From: Thermodesulfobacteriota bacterium
GTDB taxonomy: Bacteria; Desulfobacterota_D; UBA1144; Nemesobacterales; JAJCZQ01
Assembly (NCBI GenBank): GCA_965203965.1
Contig: CBDBDR010000017.1
Span: 448,001 to 512,000 of the forward strand
DNA: 64,000 nucleotides
Direction: 5' to 3'
Shown here: positions 9,283 through 23,181 of the stretch, in pieces
Numbering within the stretch: position 1 is the stretch's first letter
How the letters are laid out: the number at the start of each line of letters is the position of its first letter
Position numbers and translations under genes: made by a program
Notes under the pieces: generated by a model
What the model was told of the DNA's origin: nothing
Seen by the model: only the letters and a program-made list of their open reading frames with translations
Databases searched by the model: none

Positions 9283-10452
9283 ATGGTAGATATTAAAGAT
9301 GCAATTGAGGAGATAAGCAAAGGTAACCTTGTAATACTGGTTGATGATGAAGACCGCGAGAATGAAGGTGACCTTGTAATTGCAGCAGAACATGCAACTC
9401 CGGAAATTATTAACTTTATGGCAATACATGGCAGGGGTTTAATCTGCCTCGCCATAACTAGAGAGAATGCCGACAGGTTATCACTGCAGCCTATTAAGCC
9501 AGAAAATAATGACGTGCCCGAATATACTGCATTCACTATATCAATAGATGCTATAAGAGGAGTCACAACGGGTATTTCCGCTTTTGATAGAGCAAAAACT
9601 ATCGGCCTGGCTATATCGGAAGATTCAACTCCCCGTGATTTTATAAGACCTGGTCACGTCTTCCCTTTGGTTGCGAGAAAAGGTGGTGTTCTTGTCAGGG
9701 CTGGTCATACAGAGGGTTCGGTGGATTTAGCAAGAATTGCAGGACTTAAGCCTGCATCCGTAATTTGTGAAATTATGAAAGACGACGGCGATATGGCAAG
9801 ACTTAAAGATTTGAAGAAATTTTCAGAGAAGCACGGCATAAAAGTCGTAACTATTGCAGACATAATAAGCCACAGACTTCAAAATGAAACGTTAGTTAAT
9901 AAAGTTGCAGAAGCGGAGTTGCCCACTGAGTATGGGAGTTTCAGGTCAATGGTTTATGAAAGCGAAATTAATCTGGCTCACCATATTGCCCTCGTAAAAG
10001 GAAACATCAATCCCGATGAAGAGGTTCTGGTCAGAGTACACTCTGAATGTCTTGTCAGTGATGTTTTTAATACTCAAAACTTTGACAGCAGAGCAAATCT
10101 GATCAATTCAATGAGTATGATAGAAGATGAAGGTCTGGGAGTAATATTGTATATAAGGTCAGAGAGTTATGATGATAGGCTTGTCAATAAAATAAACAAC
10201 TATGCAAAAAATGGAAAATTTCCCGATCCTCTGGATGAAGGAAATTATCATGATTATAAAAATGAATTGAGAAACTACGGTATTGGTGCGCAAATTTTAC
10301 GTGACTTGAACTTAAAAAAAATTAAGCTCCTAACAAATAATCCAAAGAAGGTAAAAGGATTAGAAGGATTTGGCATGAAAATAGTAGAGAGAGTCCCCAT
10401 TAAGAAACCCGAGAAAGGGAATAACTGCTTTGAATTGAAAAAAATCAGCTAA
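9283..10452 (+). CDS. ribB: DHBP synthase fused to a degenerate GTP cyclohydrolase II domain (RibBA/RibBX type)
   Basis: DDEDRENEGD, PGHVFPL, RAGHTE intact; GCHII part reads RVHSECLVSDVFNTQNFDS and lacks the RCDC zinc ligands. Confidence 0.9.
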   Translation: MVDIKDAIEEISKGNLVILVDDEDRENEGDLVIAAEHATPEIINFMAIHGRGLICLAITRENADRLSLQPIKPENNDVPEYTAFTISIDAIRGVTTGISAFDRAKTIGLAISEDSTPRDFIRPGHVFPLVARKGGVLVRAGHTEGSVDLARIAGLKPASVICEIMKDDGDMARLKDLKKFSEKHGIKVVTIADIISHRLQNETLVNKVAEAELPTEYGSFRSMVYESEINLAHHIALVKGNINPDEEVLVRVHSECLVSDVFNTQNFDSRANLINSMSMIEDEGLGVILYIRSESYDDRLVNKINNYAKNGKFPDPLDEGNYHDYKNELRNYGIGAQILRDLNLKKIKLLTNNPKKVKGLEGFGMKIVERVPIKKPEKGNNCFELKKIS

Positions 10453-14983: not shown

Positions 14984-14995
14984 TTGACAAATAGC
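14984..14995 (+). repeat. 12-bp direct repeat TTGACAAATAGC (left copy)
   Basis: Identical to 15975-15986; abuts the stop codon of ORF 14995-15363. Confidence 0.75.
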
Positions 14996-15363
14996 TATCT
15001 GTCTGCAAATAACCCCTTGATAATAACCATAGACAGTGCAATCACGTTAATAGTAGTTGCTGCCAACAAGGTTATGAGGACAGTGTTGGAATAAAGGGCT
15101 ATGGAGTAGAAGAAATTGGACGCTCCAACAAATATTAACACCACTGCTATAAAAATAAGCCAACTGGAAACTATCCGCCTTGCCCAAGTTGCAAACTTTC
15201 CTCGCAACTCCTGCTTTTGCTTTTCCGCATTGATCTGGAGGTTTTGCAAGCGATCTTGCAGTATGGTTTGCTCATCAGGCGAGTCTTTACTCGGTTGTTT
15301 CTGAGCCTTTTCAAGTGTTTCAGGAAATCCTGTTCTTTGTTCCCCGCTCTTGCACATACCCAA
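14995..15363 (-). CDS. Two-TM membrane protein, putative toxin partner of the Panacea antitoxin
   Basis: Starts immediately after the Panacea stop; coiled N-terminus plus two hydrophobic helices; toxin role is inferred from context. Confidence 0.6.
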   Translation of the reverse strand: MGMCKSGEQRTGFPETLEKAQKQPSKDSPDEQTILQDRLQNLQINAEKQKQELRGKFATWARRIVSSWLIFIAVVLIFVGASNFFYSIALYSNTVLITLLAATTINVIALSMVIIKGLFADR

Positions 15364-15870
15364 TCAATTCAAACTGTCATACAGATCTGTATAATATTTC
15401 CGAATGAGATTTTTTGGTATTTCTTTGCTAGGAGTGTTATCAAAGGTGTCCCACCACGGAGTGCCTTTTTTGTGTGTTAGGTCAATCAGATGTTCAGCCG
15501 GAGCGTGTTTATACGCATTCCAAATGGTTTTCAAAATTCCAAGCACTTCTTTGTCAGTAATATCTTCTTCCGTTGGTTTTTTGGGCTCTTCGTTACCAAA
15601 CGGATCATACAAAGTCGCACGACGATCTTTTATAGGGCCTTTGCCATATTCCCGAAGCTCATAATAAAGCGAAGGAACCACCGGACCATATCTCCAAGCC
15701 TCTATGCGATCAGTAAACAGATCGGCATTCTTAGCTACACTGAACCAACCGAAAAAGATGTAGACCAATTTGAGAAGTTTCAAAATACTTACGTCTGTAA
15801 CATTGTCCTTCTCTGCATTGTCCAAAATAAAGTTAGCTATGTGTGCTGCTTTGTATGTGCTTTGCTGCAC
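15364..15870 (-). CDS. Panacea-domain (DUF4065/SocA/GepA-like) antitoxin
   Basis: IANFIL, LKLLKLVY, LFTDRIEAWRYGPVVPSLY, LIDLTHKKGTPW; AGGAGG RBS before the GTG start. Confidence 0.9.
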   Translation of the reverse strand: MQQSTYKAAHIANFILDNAEKDNVTDVSILKLLKLVYIFFGWFSVAKNADLFTDRIEAWRYGPVVPSLYYELREYGKGPIKDRRATLYDPFGNEEPKKPTEEDITDKEVLGILKTIWNAYKHAPAEHLIDLTHKKGTPWWDTFDNTPSKEIPKNLIRKYYTDLYDSLN

Positions 15871-15908
15871 AGGACACCTCCTGTCGTTTTTTTGGAGTAA
15901 TGTTTTAA

Positions 15909-15938
15909 ACTATAACACTATACCAACCAACTTGACAA
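15909..15938 (-). promoter_or_regulatory. Putative promoter of the Panacea operon
   Basis: Minus strand TTGTCA-N18-TATAGT with an extended -10 TGn. Confidence 0.45.
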
Positions 15939-15974
15939 CTACTATTGGTCAGGATCCCTGTCAGGGCAGAGTGG

Positions 15975-16003
15975 TTGACAAATAGCACTACACGTGCTAT
16001 ATA
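15975..16003 (+). promoter_or_regulatory. Sigma70 promoter of ncRNA-1 with a palindromic operator; includes the right 12-bp direct repeat
   Basis: TTGACA-N17-TATATA with TGn; perfect ATAGCAC-N5-GTGCTAT palindrome at 15982-16000. Confidence 0.7.
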
Positions 16004-16008
16004 AACAG

Positions 16009-16146
16009 TTAAGAGCATGTGGCAAATTCTCCATGCGAAACGCTGAGGATATTCCTGATATCCAAAGGTTAGCCACAGGATGGTCAGAAAGGGTTGTTGG
16101 AGTCCTTAAGCATGTTCAAGGGAGCGTCAGGGGTTCCCTTTTTTTT
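16009..16146 (+). ncRNA. Unnamed structured ncRNA-1, convergent with the MuF-PBECR gene
   Basis: Own promoter and terminator; helices covary with the paralog at 18095-18232; loop UCCUG is complementary to loop CAGGA. Confidence 0.75.
16118..16146 (+). terminator. Intrinsic terminator of ncRNA-1, overlapping the MuF stop codon
   Basis: AAGGGAGC-GTCAGGG-GTTCCCTT followed by a T tract. Confidence 0.8.
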
Positions 16147-17347
16147 GTAGCTTTTCTTGTGCCAGAAGTTCTTTCACTTGAGACGTTCTTATCCGATGGA
16201 TGGTTGTCAAAAAGATTTCGTCAGTCCCCTCTACAGATTTCACGATCGCTCTTAAAAACTTTTTTGGCTGGTATTCCTGTATGAAGTGCGACTCTACTCC
16301 TTTTGTTGCAACAATCGCTTGTGAGTTATCTATGATCTTCTGCGTATCGGCGTAGTTTGCGATCTTGATATTTGAATGCTTGTCAAGATGACCTACAAGC
16401 GTTTCCTGAGATAGAAGCACTGTATGCCCGTTAGTTTTAAGGGCTTTGGAGACCTCTGCGGGGACGACCCCAACTGGAAAGAACTCTTCGCTTTTTTTGT
16501 TCACCCATATTTTAAATTGATCTCCAGACAACATATCCTGCGTAAAATCACGAGCGATACGTGGCGTGAAATTGTTTAAGTTTGGCAACCAAGACCGTTT
16601 GCCCGGATTAAAGCCAAAGCTGGCGTGTGGCAACACTACTTTGCCAGTGGGAAGGCGGTATCCGGTAAGGTTTACGCTCTTTGGGTTGTTGACAGTGCCA
16701 ATTTCAACCTTGCTTCTCACCAGCTTGCCTTTTGAACTGCTAACCTCCCATTCTCTGCTGGTTATCTGTTGTTGGGTCAACGTCCGTTTGTTGCAACGGC
16801 AGTTGTAATCCAGCGGTGGAGTAAAAGTGTTCCAGAATGGATCATCAACCGGAAATATACTGCCGTCAAGCTCAGCGTGGCTTTCCCGAGTGCGGGAATC
16901 ATGCAGTGCGATAAATTGAGCAAAAGGACGGCGCTTTTTATTTTTCTCAATAGACGCTTCCCTGCCCGCAGCATAGGCAGATAGTAGGTTTGTGCGATAG
17001 ATAGTTTTTAAGCGGTGCGGGGGGAACTTCTGAGGAATTACCTCTCCTGTTTTTTTGTTTATTTTTTCTGCACCTTTCCAGCCTCCCTTTTGTAGCTTTG
17101 GTTCAAGTTCTTTTTTGAACTGCTGAAAAGTCTTGCCATCGGTCAAAGCCCCGTCAAGTGCCGTTTTTATATCTTTTAAAAGGTCTATTTTTGCGACATT
17201 TGCAACGGTGAAAACGTGTGCATGAGCTTCGCCAAGCACCTCACGCCAACCACGCGAGACCTTGTATTGCCTTGATCTTAGGTAATTGACTGCCTGCTCG
17301 GGCGTCCTTCTAAACATAAAGTTCAGGTTAATTGTTTTCGGGGGCAT
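16127..17347 (-). CDS. Phage Mu gpF (MuF) head morphogenesis protein with a C-terminal PBECR2-like putative RNase/toxin domain
   Basis: MuF motifs RLKTIYRTNLLSAYAAGR, DSRTRESHAELDG, DDPFWNTFTPPLDYNCRC, FGFNPG; C-terminal FPVGVV...LLSQETL...H..KH...Y...AIVK...EIFLTTIHR (PBECR2 assignment by eye). Confidence 0.85.
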   Translation of the reverse strand: MPPKTINLNFMFRRTPEQAVNYLRSRQYKVSRGWREVLGEAHAHVFTVANVAKIDLLKDIKTALDGALTDGKTFQQFKKELEPKLQKGGWKGAEKINKKTGEVIPQKFPPHRLKTIYRTNLLSAYAAGREASIEKNKKRRPFAQFIALHDSRTRESHAELDGSIFPVDDPFWNTFTPPLDYNCRCNKRTLTQQQITSREWEVSSSKGKLVRSKVEIGTVNNPKSVNLTGYRLPTGKVVLPHASFGFNPGKRSWLPNLNNFTPRIARDFTQDMLSGDQFKIWVNKKSEEFFPVGVVPAEVSKALKTNGHTVLLSQETLVGHLDKHSNIKIANYADTQKIIDNSQAIVATKGVESHFIQEYQPKKFLRAIVKSVEGTDEIFLTTIHRIRTSQVKELLAQEKLQKKGNP

Positions 17348-17573
17348 TGCTTATCTCTCCCCATAGGCGGGCTATTACCCATTTGTTTTCAAGGCTTTTT
17401 TAAGAGGAATTCAAACGGGGAAACGACCCTTGTTAAACACCGATTAAACCCTATTTAAAGTGTCAATAATTCCACCAAAAGATCTCTTTAATCCGAACTT
17501 CTCCGGGATTCATAGTGTGAACTTATATACTGTTTGCAGTTGATTATTTCTTTGTTCTAATTACGCAATTTGC

Positions 17574-17666
17574 AAAAAGCTCATCAACCCAAAAACGGGC
17601 GAGATAACAAAGTTTGCACCGCACTGCCTAAAAACTATTTATCATACAAATCTACTATCTGCCTAA
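17574..17666 (+). pseudogene. Remnant of the N-terminal MuF region of the second paralog
   Basis: Translates to KKLINPKTGEITKFAPHCLKTIYHTNLLSA*, matching EKINKKTGEVIPQKFPPHRLKTIYRTNLLSAY in the intact copy. Confidence 0.8.
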
Positions 17667-17667
17667 C

Positions 17668-18096
17668 TTGAATTTTTACGAACCTGTCAGCGCCCGCCAC
17701 TATGTGCAGGAGCTGGTCAATAGTAAGGTTTTTACGCGCTGGATGAGTAAAAAAAGTCAAGAGTTCTTTCCCGTTGGAATTGTCCCCGCAGGGGTCTCAA
17801 AAGCCCTTAACACCAATGGGCATAAGTTGCTTTTGTCTCAGGAGACCTTGATCACCCACCTTAAAAAACACTCAGATATTAAACTTGCAAACTATGCTGC
17901 TATGCAGAAGATCATAGATAATTCGCAGGCAGTGTTAAGAGGGCGAGAAGTGCATTTTATACAGCAAGATCAACCCGGAAAGTTCTTAAGGGCAGTTGTA
18001 AAAGCTGTAGATGATTCGGATGAGATTTTTTTAAATACAATCCACAGAATGCGGGCATCTCAAGCAGAGGAATTTCTATCACAAGAAAAACTATAA
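17668..18096 (+). CDS. Orphan PBECR2-like domain, paralog of the MuF C-terminus (internally deleted gene; expression uncertain)
   Basis: About 64% identical (87/136, manual count) to residues 265-400 of 16127-17347; TTG start with no clear RBS. Confidence 0.75.
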   Translation: MNFYEPVSARHYVQELVNSKVFTRWMSKKSQEFFPVGIVPAGVSKALNTNGHKLLLSQETLITHLKKHSDIKLANYAAMQKIIDNSQAVLRGREVHFIQQDQPGKFLRAVVKAVDDSDEIFLNTIHRMRASQAEEFLSQEKL

Positions 18097-18232
18097 AAAA
18101 AGGGAGCCCCTGACGCTCCCTTGTGTGTGCGAGGGGGACTCGGGTAACTCCCCTACAGAACTTTTTTGGGCATCAGGCATGCCCTCAGCAATCGCGCCGA
18201 GCAGTTTTTGCCGCAACACACTTAAAATGCTT
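18095..18232 (-). ncRNA. Unnamed structured ncRNA-2, convergent with the orphan PBECR gene
   Basis: Same architecture as ncRNA-1 with compensatory substitutions; ends in AAGGGAGC-GTCAGGG-GCTCCCTT plus a T tract. Confidence 0.75.
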
Positions 18233-18238
18233 TTCATA

Positions 18239-18267
18239 TTTATAATAAAAATATAGTATTGTGTCAA
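18239..18267 (-). promoter_or_regulatory. Sigma70 promoter of ncRNA-2
   Basis: Minus strand TTGACA-N17-TATAAA, in an equivalent position to the ncRNA-1 promoter. Confidence 0.7.
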
Positions 18268-18319
18268 TCAAACGTTTATGTTTAATGATTTAGTTTACAT
18301 AATTTCAAGGAGAAAAAAT

Positions 18320-18778
18320 ATGTCCGAAAAATTAAAAGTAGGGGACACTGTACCTGATTTTGAGGCTGAAACTTACGGTGGTGAAGTAGTAAAGTTGAGT
18401 GATTATTACAAGGAGAAAATTGTAGCTCTTTACTTTTATCCTAAAGACAATACTCCCGGATGCACAAAAGAAGCCTGCTCTATAAGGGATGGAATGGATG
18501 AGCTTTCAGAGCTGGGAATTCAAGTTGTTGGAGTAAGCACAGACGGTGTGAAATCACATGAAAATTTTAGGAAAAAATACAATTTGAATTTTCCTCTGGT
18601 GAGCGATAAAAGCAAAACTATTATAAATATGTATGGTGTAAAAAGTGCGTTTGGGTCAGCAAAAAGACAAACATTCCTGATAGACGGCAAAGGCATAATA
18701 CAACACATTTGGAACAAGGTTAAGACGGCTCAACATGCAGATGAAATCGCAGATAAGGTCAGGGAGTTGAATCTTTAG
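18320..18778 (+). CDS. bcp: Peroxiredoxin Bcp/PrxQ
   Basis: YFYPKDNTPGCTKEAC, RQTFLID; AAGGAG RBS before ATG 18320. Confidence 0.9.
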   Translation: MSEKLKVGDTVPDFEAETYGGEVVKLSDYYKEKIVALYFYPKDNTPGCTKEACSIRDGMDELSELGIQVVGVSTDGVKSHENFRKKYNLNFPLVSDKSKTIINMYGVKSAFGSAKRQTFLIDGKGIIQHIWNKVKTAQHADEIADKVRELNL

Positions 18779-18799
18779 AATAATTGCCATAGTGTTGTT

Positions 18800-19540
18800 G
18801 TGATAAACATTCCAAAAAAGATATTTATTACTGGAACTGATACCGGAGTTGGAAAAACGGTGGTTACGGCTGCAATTTCCAGTTGTTTAATAAAAAAGGG
18901 TTTAAGTGTCAATCCCTTAAAACCTTTTCAGACCGGTACAGAAGACCCAGTTGTTCACGATATAGAGTTCATACATAAAGTAATTGGTAAAACCTTTGAT
19001 ATTAACAAGGCATGTCCCTTTAGATTAAAAAAGCCCCTTTCACCTTATTACGCTTCCAAACTGGAAAAGGTTGATTACAGCATCCCTGATATTATAGAAA
19101 TACTGAAAGGTCGAATATCTGAAACCAGTATAAATCTGATAGAAGGTGCAGGTGGACTTAGGGTACCGATAACAAAGAGTTATTTTATGAGTGACTTGGC
19201 AAAGGATCTGGGCTCAACCCTGGTAATTGTTGCAAGGCCAGGGCTTGGGACAATTAACCATACTCTTTTGACTATTGATCATGCAAGATCTCACGGTTTA
19301 AAAATCATGGGAGTTGTAATATCCAATTATCCGACAAAACCAAATCTGGCTGACCTTACCAATATTTCTCAATTAAGAGAATTACTTGGTGTTGAAATAC
19401 TTGGGGTCATACCATCACTGGACAACGTGGTTGTGGAAGAAGGAGAAATAGGAGAATTGAATGAAAAAAGTCAAAACTTTTTCACAAATCAACTTGGTGG
19501 CAATCTTAATATAGAAAGTATGATCAACCTTACAAGATAA
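18800..19540 (+). CDS. bioD: Dethiobiotin synthase
   Basis: FITGTDTGVGKT, KPFQTG, IEGAGG, LGTINHTLL. Confidence 0.94.
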   Translation: MINIPKKIFITGTDTGVGKTVVTAAISSCLIKKGLSVNPLKPFQTGTEDPVVHDIEFIHKVIGKTFDINKACPFRLKKPLSPYYASKLEKVDYSIPDIIEILKGRISETSINLIEGAGGLRVPITKSYFMSDLAKDLGSTLVIVARPGLGTINHTLLTIDHARSHGLKIMGVVISNYPTKPNLADLTNISQLRELLGVEILGVIPSLDNVVVEEGEIGELNEKSQNFFTNQLGGNLNIESMINLTR

Positions 19541-19661
19541 GACCCTGATACACTTGACAGACAACTACAACGTGATATAAGTAATTGCTATTTTTCAGGA
19601 GCAGCACTGTGATTTCCAAAAAGTTCGTTCTGGAAATTTATTACATAAAGATCAGGTCAAT

Positions 19662-20231
19662 ATGAGCTACTTTATAAAACTTACCCCAGTTATTATGTTG
19701 TGTATCTTGATCTCGTTAGGCATATATCAGCATAAGGCGAAAAGCGGTAACAAAGGTCCCTCTCAACCTGTCCTGTTCAGCCATAAGATACATGCAGGGG
19801 AGAATGAAATACCATGTGAGTATTGCCACAGTTTTGTAGATGTATCACCTAACCCGGGTATTCCTTCACTTCAGAAATGTATTGGATGTCACCAGCACGT
19901 GCTCGGAAGAGATGAGGATTATGTAACCAATGAGGGACAGGTAATCAACTATAAGGATGAAATTGCCAAAGTCAGGGAGTATTGGGAAAGAAAAGAGCCT
20001 ATACCGTGGATAAAAGTCACAAGTATGGGTGAATACGTAAGGTTCAATCATAAGAGACATATTAAAAGGGGTTTTGAATGCCAGACGTGTCATGGACAGG
20101 TGCAAGAAATGGACGTCGTTTATAAGGCTGAGAGACTTAACATGGGTTTTTGTATAAGCTGTCATGAAAAAAATGCTGATAATGAAGATCACTTAAAAGT
20201 TTTGAAAGATTGTCTGACCTGCCATTATTAA
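19662..20231 (+). CDS. actA: Alternative complex III pentaheme cytochrome c subunit
   Basis: Five CxxCH motifs, QPVLFSHKIHAG, N-terminal TM; first gene of the act cluster. Confidence 0.88.
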   Translation: MSYFIKLTPVIMLCILISLGIYQHKAKSGNKGPSQPVLFSHKIHAGENEIPCEYCHSFVDVSPNPGIPSLQKCIGCHQHVLGRDEDYVTNEGQVINYKDEIAKVREYWERKEPIPWIKVTSMGEYVRFNHKRHIKRGFECQTCHGQVQEMDVVYKAERLNMGFCISCHEKNADNEDHLKVLKDCLTCHY

Positions 20232-20247
20232 ATGGTTGGAGGTATAA

Positions 20248-23181
20248 ATGTCTGAAAAGAAAAAGGGTGAATTAAGCAGAAGAGATTTTTTAAAGGTAGT
20301 TGGCGTTGCCAGTGGCACAGCAGCTGTTACTGGTGCATGTTCAAATGAGCCTGTTGAACAGATAATACCTTATGTCATACCTCCAGAATCTTATATACCT
20401 GCGTTACCTAAATTCTATGCCTCTACATGCCGTGAGTGTCCATCAGGATGCGGAGTAATTGTAAAAAACAGAGATGGAAGGGCTATAAAAATTGAAGGCA
20501 ACCCCTTGACTCCAAATAATGGAGGGACTTGTGCAATGGGGCAGGCATCTCTGCAAGGTCTCTACAACCCTGACCGCGTAAGATCTCCGCTTGGCAAAAA
20601 GAAAAACAGAAAACAGCTTGTCCCCATCGGTTGGAGTGAAGGCATTGACGAATTGTCTAAAAAAATAAATGAACTCGTCAAAAAAGGTAAGGGAGACAGA
20701 ATAGTTTATCTAAGCAATAATATCGCTGGCACATTAAATGGCCTTGTTGAAAATTGGACAAAAGCTATAGGGGGTCGTCATTACACCTATGAGTCATTTT
20801 CTTATGACCCAATCAAAGAGGCTAACAGGATTTGCTTCGGTATTGATGAAATACCAACCTACAAAATAGAGAAAGCTAAATACGTCCTTTCCTTTGGTGC
20901 TGATTTTCTTGAAACATGGTTGTCACCAGTACGTTTTGCCAAAGGTTTTTCCAAACTCAAAACATATAAAAACGGTCGTATTGGCAAATTGGTTCAAATA
21001 GAACCAAGAGCTTCTGTTACGGCAGCAAGTGCAGATTCTTGGATTGCTGTTAAGCCTGGAACCGAAGTTTTTCTCGCTCTAGGAATTGCAAATGTAATAG
21101 TAGAAAAAGGATTGAATAAAACAAATGCCTCGTTTGTGGGAGAATTGCTATCAAAATACAACCCTGAGACAGTTTCCAAAATAACAGATATTTCAGTGGA
21201 AGTTATCAATCAGATCGCACAGGAATTCAGCAAGAGCAGAAGCATTGCACTTGGTGGAGGAGTAGCAGTTAGCGGAACCAATGCAACTGAAACAATGGTT
21301 GCCGTAAATATATTAAATTACCTTGTTGGCAATATTGGCCGCACCGTTGATTTTTCAAATACATTATCTATTTCCAGTGTCAGCACGTTTAAGGATATTA
21401 CAAAACTATTTGAAGATATGAATAGCGGTAAAGTTGAACTTCTTATAGTTCAAGGAGCTAATCCAGCTTTTACGCTACCAAAGTCGCTAAACGCAACTCA
21501 GGCTTTGAGTAAAGTTAATTATCTGGTCAGTTTGTCCCCATTTGTAGATGAAACAACCGAGATGGCTTCTCTCGTTCTTCCAGACAATCACCCAGTTGAA
21601 AGTTGGGGAGATTTCCAATCAAGTAAATCTTTCCGGGGGATAATCCAGCCTGCAATGAGTCCTGTCTTCAATACAAGATCAGTCGGGGATGTAATTATAG
21701 AGTTAAGTAAAAAAGTGGATTCTACAAAAAACCTCTTTTCTGAATCAACATACTATGATCATTTAAGAGCTTCATGGAAAAAAATTGCTTATGACAAAAC
21801 ATCTGCAAAAAGTTTTGAGTTGTTTTGGAAAGATGCACTTAAAAAAGGTGGAATTGAATTAAATACACCTGCAAGAAAAGTTTCAATGTCGTCACGCGTA
21901 AAGACATTAGAAATTTCTGAACCTTTTATGCAGGGTGACGGTGAATTTTATTTTATTACCTATCCTTCCTACAGGTATTATGACGGTTCAGGTGCTAATA
22001 AACCTTGGCTGCAAGAATTGCCAGAAGCACTTTCAACCTCCGTATGGGATTCCTACGTTGAGATACATCCCAATACGGCAAAAAAACTTGGTGTAAGGGA
22101 AGGTTCATACCTGAATATCAAATCACCCGATGGTGAATTCAAAATCCAGTCCTTTGTTTATGAAGGAATACGTCCCGATACAATAGCAATACCTATGGGT
22201 CAGGGACATACGAGCTATGGTAGGTATGCCAAGGGAAGGGGAGTAAATCCTCTGGACTTGCTGCCAAACGTTAAAGATAAAATATCAGGAGGTTTTGCTT
22301 TTCTTTCAACAAAGGCGTCAGTTTCAAATGCTGGCAAGCACGATCTGCTCGTAAGGACACAATATACAAAAACACAACATGACAGGAGCGTTGCAAAAGA
22401 CCTGACTATAAATGAACTAAAACATGGTGTCCATGATGAACATCACGAAGAGGTTGATTTTTACCCTCATAGGAAATATCCAAAATATAGATGGGCAATG
22501 AACATTGATCTCAATAAATGTACTGGCTGCGGAGCTTGTGTAACCGCTTGCTATGCAGAAAACAACATTCCGTTTGTAGGAAAAGAACAGGTGGCAAAAC
22601 GCCGCGACATGGCTTGGATAAGGATTGAAAGGTATTTTGAAAAAAATCAGAACAACAATCTGGATATCAGATTTTTGCCGATGCTTTGCCAACAATGTGG
22701 CAACGCTCCCTGTGAACCTGTCTGTCCAGTTTACGCAACGTATCACAACCCCGAAGGTTTGAATGGTATGGTATACAACAGGTGCGTTGGAACGAGATAC
22801 TGTGCAAATAACTGTACCTATAAGGTCAGAAAATTTAATTGGTATAGCTACAAGTTTCCTGAACCACTAAACTGGCAGTTGAATCCAGATGTAACAGTGA
22901 GAACCAAGGGTGTTATGGAAAAATGCACTTTTTGCGTGCAGAGAATTAAATTTGGAGAAGATATTGCTAAGGATGGAGACGGGATAGTTAGAGATGGGGA
23001 TATTCTTACCGCGTGTCAGCAGGCTTGTCCTACTGATGCCATTGTGTTCGGCAATCTCAAGGATAAATCCAGCAAGGTTTCAAAACTTGCAAAGGATAAA
23101 AGAGGATACAGAGTTTTTGAAGCTATTAATACAAAACCCGGCATAACCTATCTAAAGAAAATAAAATGGGATAAAGCATAA
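20248..23181 (+). CDS. actB: ACIII ActB: Tat-exported molybdopterin-oxidoreductase-like domain fused to an Fe-S domain
   Basis: SRRDFLK Tat motif; C-terminal CTGCGACVTAC, CQQCGNAPCEPVCP, RCVGTRYCANNC, EKCTFC, CQQACP. Confidence 0.9.
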   Translation: MSEKKKGELSRRDFLKVVGVASGTAAVTGACSNEPVEQIIPYVIPPESYIPALPKFYASTCRECPSGCGVIVKNRDGRAIKIEGNPLTPNNGGTCAMGQASLQGLYNPDRVRSPLGKKKNRKQLVPIGWSEGIDELSKKINELVKKGKGDRIVYLSNNIAGTLNGLVENWTKAIGGRHYTYESFSYDPIKEANRICFGIDEIPTYKIEKAKYVLSFGADFLETWLSPVRFAKGFSKLKTYKNGRIGKLVQIEPRASVTAASADSWIAVKPGTEVFLALGIANVIVEKGLNKTNASFVGELLSKYNPETVSKITDISVEVINQIAQEFSKSRSIALGGGVAVSGTNATETMVAVNILNYLVGNIGRTVDFSNTLSISSVSTFKDITKLFEDMNSGKVELLIVQGANPAFTLPKSLNATQALSKVNYLVSLSPFVDETTEMASLVLPDNHPVESWGDFQSSKSFRGIIQPAMSPVFNTRSVGDVIIELSKKVDSTKNLFSESTYYDHLRASWKKIAYDKTSAKSFELFWKDALKKGGIELNTPARKVSMSSRVKTLEISEPFMQGDGEFYFITYPSYRYYDGSGANKPWLQELPEALSTSVWDSYVEIHPNTAKKLGVREGSYLNIKSPDGEFKIQSFVYEGIRPDTIAIPMGQGHTSYGRYAKGRGVNPLDLLPNVKDKISGGFAFLSTKASVSNAGKHDLLVRTQYTKTQHDRSVAKDLTINELKHGVHDEHHEEVDFYPHRKYPKYRWAMNIDLNKCTGCGACVTACYAENNIPFVGKEQVAKRRDMAWIRIERYFEKNQNNNLDIRFLPMLCQQCGNAPCEPVCPVYATYHNPEGLNGMVYNRCVGTRYCANNCTYKVRKFNWYSYKFPEPLNWQLNPDVTVRTKGVMEKCTFCVQRIKFGEDIAKDGDGIVRDGDILTACQQACPTDAIVFGNLKDKSSKVSKLAKDKRGYRVFEAINTKPGITYLKKIKWDKA

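Follow-up and report, generated by a model that had tools for sequence, protein, structure and literature searches.

A MuF locus faced by two RNA genes

We analysed a window of 64,000 nucleotides (nt) from a Thermodesulfobacteriota genome (contig CBDBDR010000017.1, positions 448,001 to 512,000), in which two related genes for predicted ribonuclease (RNase) domains are each met head-on by a small structured RNA gene. The larger gene encodes a MuF protein of 406 amino acids (16127..17347, minus strand), whose PBECR3-like C-terminal domain spans approximately residues 257–406 (16130–16579). The smaller is a stand-alone PBECR3-like gene (17668..18096, plus strand) that begins with a TTG start and encodes 142 amino acids. 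Both open reading frames (ORFs) lie where an initial annotation, made from the sequence alone, had drawn them. The 142-residue protein agrees with the C-terminal 150 residues of MuF at 89 of 144 positions, and this 62% identity replaces the earlier manual estimate of ~64%.

Each gene is faced by the same cassette, as initially proposed: a TTGACA-N17-TATAWA promoter-like site, a non-coding RNA and a terminator-like hairpin. On the left, a TTGACA-N17-TATATA site (15975..16003, plus strand) precedes RNA-A (16009..16144, plus strand), which comprises a core of ~105 nt (16013–16117, helices P1–P5), a 3′ hairpin (16118–16140) and a U-run. The right cassette is the mirror image, with a TTGACA-N17-TATAAA site (18239..18267, minus strand) and RNA-B (18096..18225, minus strand), composed of a core (18221–18123) and a 3′ hairpin (18122–18100). 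Both promoter-like sites were read from the sequence. They were missed by a consensus promoter scan because the scan demands T at the last −10 position and both −10 boxes end in A; for RNA-B it offered an alternative, TTGATT-N18-TATTAT (18271–18242, minus strand). Across the RNA family described below, at least 9 of 12 promoter positions match at a fixed upstream distance in 35% of 78 RNAs, compared with 1.5% of 390 control positions. Two other accounts of the RNA-A region were considered and rejected. A 96-codon frame (15994–16284) begins within the promoter, and the changes seen are those of compensatory base pairing; a cis-regulatory leader would need a gene downstream in the direction of the RNA, and there is none.

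The MuF assignment is clear. Phage_Mu_F (PF04233) matches residues 58–186 of the 406-residue protein at 88.4 bits (cut-off 29.6, E value 7.2e-25), and the protein matches phrog_220, 'minor head protein and DNA pilot' (1e-80). The C-terminal domain, initially described as PBECR-like and proposed for checking against PBECR2, matches nearly the whole of the PBECR3 profile (PF18812), weakly and below the cut-off of 30 (16.3 and 15.3 bits for the two copies, E values 0.0096 and 0.019); a viral relative of the domain reaches 21.2 bits. The AlphaFold2 model of the 142-residue protein has a predicted local distance difference test (pLDDT) score of 94 and a predicted template modelling (pTM) score of 0.87. 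Searched with Foldseek, the model retrieves BrnT first (E value 4.9e-3, probability 1.0), followed by the HP0892, RelE and HigB toxins. The structural top five of 48,161 chains are the ribonuclease toxin BrnT (Z 6.8), the Salmonella toxin 7vd7 from a toxin–antitoxin pair (6.3), CdiA-CT (5.8), the colicin D tRNase (5.3) and a second CdiA-CT (5.1), all in the range below 8 that the aligner's own note describes as middling. By their titles, these top entries are all toxins, of the RelE and colicin D kind. The domain models as a RelE/BrnT/colicin D-like (BECR-like) fold and is a predicted RNase. H68 (142-residue numbering), P35 and Q80 are each conserved in 90% or more of the 25 domains aligned, and H68 may be catalytic, to judge from Iyer et al. 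2017 (PMC5512222). A search of PDB sequences with the domain profile returned a single chance-level row (E value 0.55), and PADLOC assigned no family to the four locus proteins.

A structured RNA family with a loop–loop contact

RNA-A and RNA-B are members of a previously undescribed family of autonomous, structured RNAs of ~125 nt, each behind its own promoter-like site of the sigma-70 kind. The first further copies came from BLAST and motif searches of the organism's own 2.0-Mb assembly. R1, a covariance model built from three RNA-A-like copies with the initially proposed helices, scores RNA-A at 162.8 bits and RNA-B, of whose type no copy was in the training set, at 69.8 bits; R2, rebuilt from 32 matches, scores them at 113.6 and 101.6 bits, and a third, later model is called R3. 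R1 recovers exactly seven copies in the own genome, including four RNA-B-like copies at 51–70 bits that were absent from training, and detects full-length members in 16 of 150 further genomes.

The fold opens with a closing stem, P1, and continues through P2, P3, P4 and a variable P5 region to the 3′ hairpin; the loops of this hairpin and of P4 pair with each other. In alignments of 78 distinct sequences, which were fitted to the model and so favour its own helices, a standard pair occupies 91.3% of the pair cells, compared with 69.8% in shuffled alignments (0 of 500 reach the observed value) and 35.6–45.1% when partners are slid. Both sides have changed together in 29 of 33 pairs. Pairing by helix amounts to 96.3% for P1, 95.1% for P2, 99.3% for P3 and 85.0% for P4, with double changes at 8 of 8 pairs in P1, 3 of 5 in P2 and 5 of 5 in P4. 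The initial annotation had read conserved pairing from the two RNAs of the window; covariation across the family bears this out and confirms P1, P2 and P4 as they were drawn. P5 fared less well, being limited to some lineages: in alignment A5 only 6–8 of 32 sequences have letters there, 75.9% paired, and the version drawn for RNA-B (AGUUCU/GGAGUU) lacks family-wide support. For a candidate P6 around the 3′ strand of P2 (AAGG/CCUU), pairing is ambiguous, at 73.5–78.2% in two registers. Model-based alignments were used for these counts in place of MAFFT alignments of type A with type B, which misplace P1 and P2.

The loop–loop contact joins a P4 loop of CCUGA or CCUGG to a complementary 3′ hairpin loop of UCAGG or CCAGG. 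In RNA-A the P4 loop CCUGA lies at 16054..16058 (coordinates by counting) and the hairpin loop UCAGG at 16127..16131, both on the plus strand; in RNA-B the same loops lie at 18177–18173 and 18113–18109 on the minus strand. Four of the pairs are 98.0% paired over the 78 sequences, although the contact was absent from every model used for aligning, and the fifth is GC in 49, AU in 17, GU in 2 and another combination in 3. Because its loop pairs with the P4 loop, the 'terminator' hairpin is part of the fold. The intrinsic terminator initially described over the nuclease 3′ end exists as a hairpin at that place, and this element of the RNA structure doubles as a terminator. The strand of the RNA is fixed by many G-U pairs, the U-run and the promoter. 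Most of the motifs earlier listed as invariant are indeed conserved, in the form AAG, GGCAAA, CUGAGG, CCAAA and GAG(U/C)CC; CCUGAU proves to be the P4 loop, paired with the hairpin loop.

In keeping with the initial suspicion of novelty, Rfam 15 has no match over either RNA within 15000–19500 at E values up to 10, nor over the RNA at seven other member loci at E values up to 1. Rfam includes phi29 pRNA and Mu-gpT-DE, the latter a motif that follows Mu-like gpT genes. Complex bacterial RNA folds with many covarying helices and a long-range loop–loop contact are rare, and such RNAs have mostly proved to be ribozymes, riboswitches or protein-binding machines.

Linkage to the MuF C-terminal domain

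R2 detects 12 copies in the own genome and members in 24 of the 101 genomes available for the order: 18 of 37 in family f8, 5 of 33 in f2 and 0 of 4 in the other genera of the own family. Across the phylum the count stays at 24 of 120 genomes, the remainder outside the order adding none. Viral and metagenome contigs were scanned with one exact pattern from the conserved core, which is biased towards one motif, and the resulting counts are lower bounds because only members that keep the pattern are seen. Viral contigs hold at least 27 pattern stretches, all of them model hits (52–110 bits, 51–73% GC) and representing 17 distinct RNAs. Metagenome contigs hold at least 67, of which 32 are model hits, 31 of these at 53 bits or more. 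Contigs with the RNA in the two collections together range from 43 to 73% GC.

The viral loci, taken with 10-kb flanks and scanned with Pfam, share a gene order of large terminase, Portal_Mu, Phage_Mu_F with PBECR3, the antisense RNA, Phage_tail_S (the Mu G family), the protease Mu I and the major head protein gpT. One viral contig additionally carries the Mu transposase, an adjoining AAA ATPase gene and GemA. The ATPase gene beside the transposase presumably occupies the place of Mu B. Since viral contigs show this setting, the RNA belongs, as a conserved element, to the head modules of Mu-like phages, in the order MuF, antisense RNA, G, and the architecture that first appeared private to the window recurs there. 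At viral locus L106 (~10049–10090), and likewise at other viral loci, the RNA promoter overlaps the start of the G-like gene on the opposite strand; the ~160-nt gap between F and G is therefore wholly filled by the RNA gene. No ORF fits between MuF and G in the phages with the RNA, and no protein immunity gene lies directly downstream of MuF: at its 3′ end the RNA runs up to the stop codon or overlaps it, and the next phage gene is Mu G-like. In phage Mu itself F and G overlap and leave no gap, and its PBECR domain is termed inactive in the consulted portions of Iyer et al. 2017 (PMC5512222). BcepMu and Komp_PAO1_1, with a short MuF that lacks the domain, have neither gap nor RNA.

A profile of 25 C-terminal domains was applied in both directions, from RNA to protein and from protein to RNA. 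Among the 17 distinct viral RNAs, 16 have a convergent, adjoining domain and the other has no flank (16 of 16 with flank). The metagenome RNAs give 17 of 32 (four without flank, one a weak hit), that is, 17 of 27 with flank. The 48 RNA rows of the phylum divide into 20 that are convergent and adjacent (one repeats a locus), 1 that is co-directional and adjacent, 4 that are distant or second in a tandem, and 23 with no domain. Taken together, 53 of 54 adjacent rows (one repeating a locus) are convergent, and the sole co-directional case has the RNA downstream. In the reverse direction the profile gives 21 matches in 14 of the 101 genomes of the order, 19 of them with the RNA within 75 nt. The two exceptions are a 66-residue fragment (G021) and a full domain (G010) with a partial, sub-threshold RNA match at the expected place (9.5 bits, E value 0.09). 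In the own genome the RNA stands at the 3′ end of all eight PBECR-like matches. The proposal that the RNA travels with the nuclease domain therefore holds for 19 of 21 domains in the order and for every flanked viral RNA; the linkage of the family to the PBECR3-like MuF domain in Mu-like phages is tight, not exclusive. A narrower search for related loci with the domain alignment returned three already-known loci from genome contigs and none from viral contigs.

In most cases the 3′ ends of gene and RNA share 1–19 nt, confined to the hairpin. The linkage is independent of this antisense overlap, because in G005 the RNA follows MuF in the same direction, with its own TTGACA-N17-TATATT directly past the stop codon. 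The RNA is also kept beside the C-terminal domain when the latter is reduced to fragments of 37–105 residues.

The own genome has five MuF matches and, within the assembly, no Mu G-like gene. MuF-domain and RNA modules, together with truncated remnants, occur there at eight places without other head genes; the window locus sits amid trpC, tpx, bcp and bioD, and the modules elsewhere likewise have housekeeping neighbours. Two full-length MuF genes, the one in the window and a second, are near-identical to about residue 248 (...HASFGFNP) and then diverge, with a different RNA type beside each. The remaining copies are truncated at the N terminus and keep domain and RNA. Open frames of truncated genes that keep both measure 142–320 residues. 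Near-identical RNA-B-type copies form the outer, second member of tandem arrays at three loci, and contigs from DNA runs that carry other RNA-B copies lose their likeness to the window at 18223–18225, the RNA-B 5′ end. Orphans make up about half of the bacterial copies and frequently sit in defence islands. In other genomes they lie beside Type ISP restriction, HsdM, DUF4238, DncV_C, DUF6361, STAND or housekeeping genes.

A 6.5-kb contig (C13 of G000) is an alternative form of window positions 14995–20250; it opens with the same PanT/PanA and has the same bcp, bioD and cytochrome genes at its other flank. Between these flanks lie a MuF gene with a frameshift, a C-terminal domain of another kind accompanied by a third RNA type, and a same-strand tandem of RNA-B and RNA-A. 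Such alternative content indicates strain-level rearrangement at the locus. One contig from a DNA run joins 17849 to 18098 and omits 248 nt of the stand-alone domain gene, which may represent a deletion variant in the population. An RNA-A-type orphan with a decayed 3′ hairpin (G000:C17:1176095-1176230, plus strand) lies between dnaE and a type I restriction-modification operon, with several repeats of a GCCAGTTAAA-like motif downstream.

Downstream of the MuF gene in the window, at a distance of 256 nt, an ORF of 168 amino acids (15364–15870, minus strand) matches the SocA/Panacea antitoxin family (E value 7e-19). It abuts a membrane ORF of 122 amino acids (14995–15363, minus strand) whose C-terminal half is hydrophobic, and the two (14995–15870, minus strand) look like a PanA–PanT-type pair separate from the MuF module. 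The earlier statement that no immunity ORF follows the nuclease genes must be amended in that a PanA ORF does follow MuF, though this ORF seems to be paired with its own membrane ORF. By Pfam, none of the scanned neighbours at other loci is SocA_Panacea.

Cultured phages were also searched. BLAST of one viral RNA region and tblastn of its domain found no match among them, and nine cultured Mu-like phage regions gave no significant R2 or R3 match, the site expected in the Mannheimia phage reaching 5.8 bits (E value 7.4). Single-sequence folds of the opposite strand of the MuF-downstream gap show, in three cultured or deposited phages, a stem that closes the whole stretch. These stem-closed, multi-hairpin folds lie in Mannheimia vB_MhM_3927AP2 (L120:2777-2902, minus strand), a Helicobacter prophage (L124:2634-2771, minus strand) and Ochrobactrum POA1180 (L121:2709-2787, minus strand), each with a promoter-like site upstream by eye and no significant model match. 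Sister families of the RNA may occupy the slot in these phages, and we note them as a lead. A shorter RNA relative (L195:1930-2010, minus strand; contig C9 of G010) follows the full PBECR-like gene mentioned above; it has GGUGAAUCUCCCGG..., GGGAGUCCCC and a 9-bp closing stem, lies behind a TATAAT box and apparently lacks P4 and the 3′ hairpin.

Possible functions and comparison with known systems

We tentatively favour a role for the RNA as a trans-acting inhibitor, or immunity factor, of the RNase domain, and give this a little less than an even chance. The RNA would be made independently of the late phage operon, bind the predicted RNase domain in trans and keep it inert, serving as immunity factor or antitoxin for a domain that would otherwise be packaged and delivered with the phage DNA. 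Orphan bacterial copies might then act like orphan immunity genes. We prefer this reading because domain–RNA pairs persist as remnants and because C-terminal domain and RNA type switch together. Orphans and tandem arrays also speak for it, as do the lack of room for a protein immunity gene in the phage arrangement and a promoter independent of the late operon. Mu, whose domain is called inactive in the same portions of Iyer et al. 2017 (PMC5512222), lacks the gap. A wider scenario, which we consider rather unlikely as a whole, is that Mu-like phages carry a MuF RNase warhead together with the folded RNA that disarms it, and that bacteria retain or capture the pair as an addiction or defence module and collect orphan antidotes in defence islands against incoming phages.

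A number of observations weigh against an inhibitor. There is no PBECR-like gene within ~1.4 kb of 23 of the 48 phylum RNA rows and 10 of the 27 flanked metagenome RNAs, so the RNA may serve a separate function. RNA-B copies that are near-identical have differing neighbours, with the likeness beginning at the RNA 5′ end, and in C13 RNA-A abuts a fragment resembling the RNA-B-linked domain. The domain profile leans towards the RNA-linked subfamily because it was built from RNA-adjacent proteins, and the G010 domain has no more than its sub-threshold match. Five cultured phages with a profile-matched domain (E values 5e-20 to 4e-8) have no significant RNA match; four of them, namely the three with the folds described above and Alteromonadaceae B23, have a gap of 150–308 nt after F, and VW-6B has none. 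Divergence of RNA and domain is correlated (Mantel r 0.74, matched in 0 of 999 permutations), which lends weak support since adjacent genes co-diverge by linkage anyway. The PBECR3 scores are below cut-off, and the structural Z scores of 5–7 are middling. Metatranscriptome contigs from two runs of one study that are identical to the window cover 15975–16295 and nothing elsewhere in the MuF gene or RNA-B, and in one contig the likeness to the window starts exactly at 15975, a weak hint that RNA-A is transcribed. These contigs extend ~150 nt past the terminator into the gene; they carry neither strand nor ends, and MuF mRNA or library DNA is a possible source. Lack of cover in the two RNA runs does not show that other parts of the window are silent.

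The same coupling data would be expected if the PBECR-like domain were an RNA-binding module and the RNA its partner, in a ribonucleoprotein for portal-side head assembly, for co-packaging and injection or for the choice of RNase target. The position within the head module, adjoining portal and MuF, fits such a cofactor or cargo, and so do the elaborate fold with its conserved single-stranded motifs and the RNA-binding role suggested for the inactive Mu gp30 domain in the portions of Iyer et al. 2017 (PMC5512222) cited here. In one variant the complementary loops could join RNA molecules together, since pair counts cannot separate intra- from intermolecular loop–loop pairing. We nevertheless regard a cofactor as unlikely. 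Orphans, and RNA–domain remnants amid housekeeping genes without a Mu G-like gene, are hard to square with a virion role; the promoter opposes the late operon; and the RNA is absent from Mu itself and unmatched in several Mu-like phages. The joining variant would parallel the phi29 packaging RNA, which is represented in Rfam and which the Rfam scans did not match.

It is likewise improbable, in our estimate, that the RNA is an independent 'moron' that uses a permissive gap after MuF, is expressed in lysogeny and has a job unrelated to the domain, such as defence decoy, regulator or superinfection exclusion. Its own promoter and terminator, opposed to the late operon, would suit this, as would the orphans by defence genes, about half of the bacterial copies, and the near-identical RNA-B copies whose likeness starts at the RNA 5′ end amid differing surroundings. 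An unrelated passenger would not be expected to stay by the C-terminal domain once other phage genes are gone, down to fragments of 37–105 residues, nor to switch type with the domain inside one genome, and phages with a short, domain-less MuF (BcepMu, Komp_PAO1_1) have neither gap nor RNA. A cis-acting, type I-like antisense role, in which the RNA or its read-through pairs with the MuF mRNA 3′ end, or the hairpin acts as a two-way terminator setting MuF and G levels, is very unlikely. The 3′ overlap of 1–19 nt in most cases and the RNA-library contigs that reach ~150 nt from the RNA into the gene speak for it. The overlap, however, is confined to the hairpin, and what is conserved is structure and not complementarity to the mRNA, many G-U pairs being A-C on the other strand. 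The co-directional case (L028), the orphan copies and a protein that is large and not a small hydrophobic peptide also stand against it.

The family is bound up with one predicted RNase domain of phages that have been studied well, and two small genes would suffice to test the hypothesis directly. If the wider scenario above is right, polymorphic toxin systems would gain their first RNA immunity factor, and the pair would form a new RNA–protein toxin–antitoxin class, with a BECR-fold toxin and a non-repetitive, pseudoknotted RNA. An inhibitor would add an RNA-based mode of immunity to polymorphic toxins and phage 'pilot' effectors, account for the absence of a visible immunity protein in this PBECR group and provide a toxin–antitoxin pair of a new kind. 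Were the RNA a cofactor instead, phage head biology would gain a second case of a built-in RNA.

Among known systems, the MuF polymorphic toxins (Jamet et al. 2017, PMC5576092; Iyer et al. 2017, PMC5512222; both in the portions used here) likewise combine an N-terminal MuF with a swappable C-terminal effector past a conserved junction. The MuF-PBECR polyvalent proteins in the latter source (PMC5512222) share the predicted BECR-fold RNase C terminus and, in viral contigs, the phage head module. In the systems described in these portions (PMC5576092, PMC5512222) a downstream protein immunity gene is present or expected, whereas here an opposite-strand structured RNA gene takes that place. The searched parts of PMC5512222 and PMC5576092 make no mention of an RNA partner, and a full-text literature search found no paper linking MuF or PBECR to one. 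Unlike MuF systems in phage head modules, the window module stands alone among housekeeping genes.

The RNA does not belong to the type I or type III toxin–antitoxin families. In type III systems (ToxIN, CptIN, TenpIN) a repeat-array RNA, encoded upstream in one operon with a terminator in between, neutralises an endoribonuclease by binding. If the inhibitor reading is right, neutralisation of an endoribonuclease by RNA would be shared with these systems, along with a likely role in phage–host conflict. Here, in contrast, the RNA is a single complex fold with loop–loop pairing, convergent and under its own promoter and not upstream in a toxin operon; Tandem Repeats Finder detects 0 arrays in 15900–18300, the RNA being one ~125-nt unit. 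The protein differs as well, with a model that is RelE/BrnT/colicin D-like and not ToxN-like, and with fusion to a virion protein. Type I pairs with convergent, 3′-overlapping genes occur in Bacillus subtilis prophages, and RalR/RalA is a further example of the type. They resemble the present arrangement in having a convergent small RNA over the toxin-gene 3′ end in prophage DNA. The type I toxin is a small hydrophobic or membrane peptide, whereas the proteins here have 142–468 amino acids and soluble-looking domains, and the hairpin-only overlap, conserved tertiary fold, co-directional case and many orphans set the RNA apart.

Two structured RNAs of phage head-gene regions, Mu-gpT-DE and phi29 pRNA, offer a last comparison. 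phi29 pRNA has two complementary loops, as does the RNA described here, which also lies in a head-gene region. The present family is distinguished from both by its place after MuF, by its strand and by its fold.

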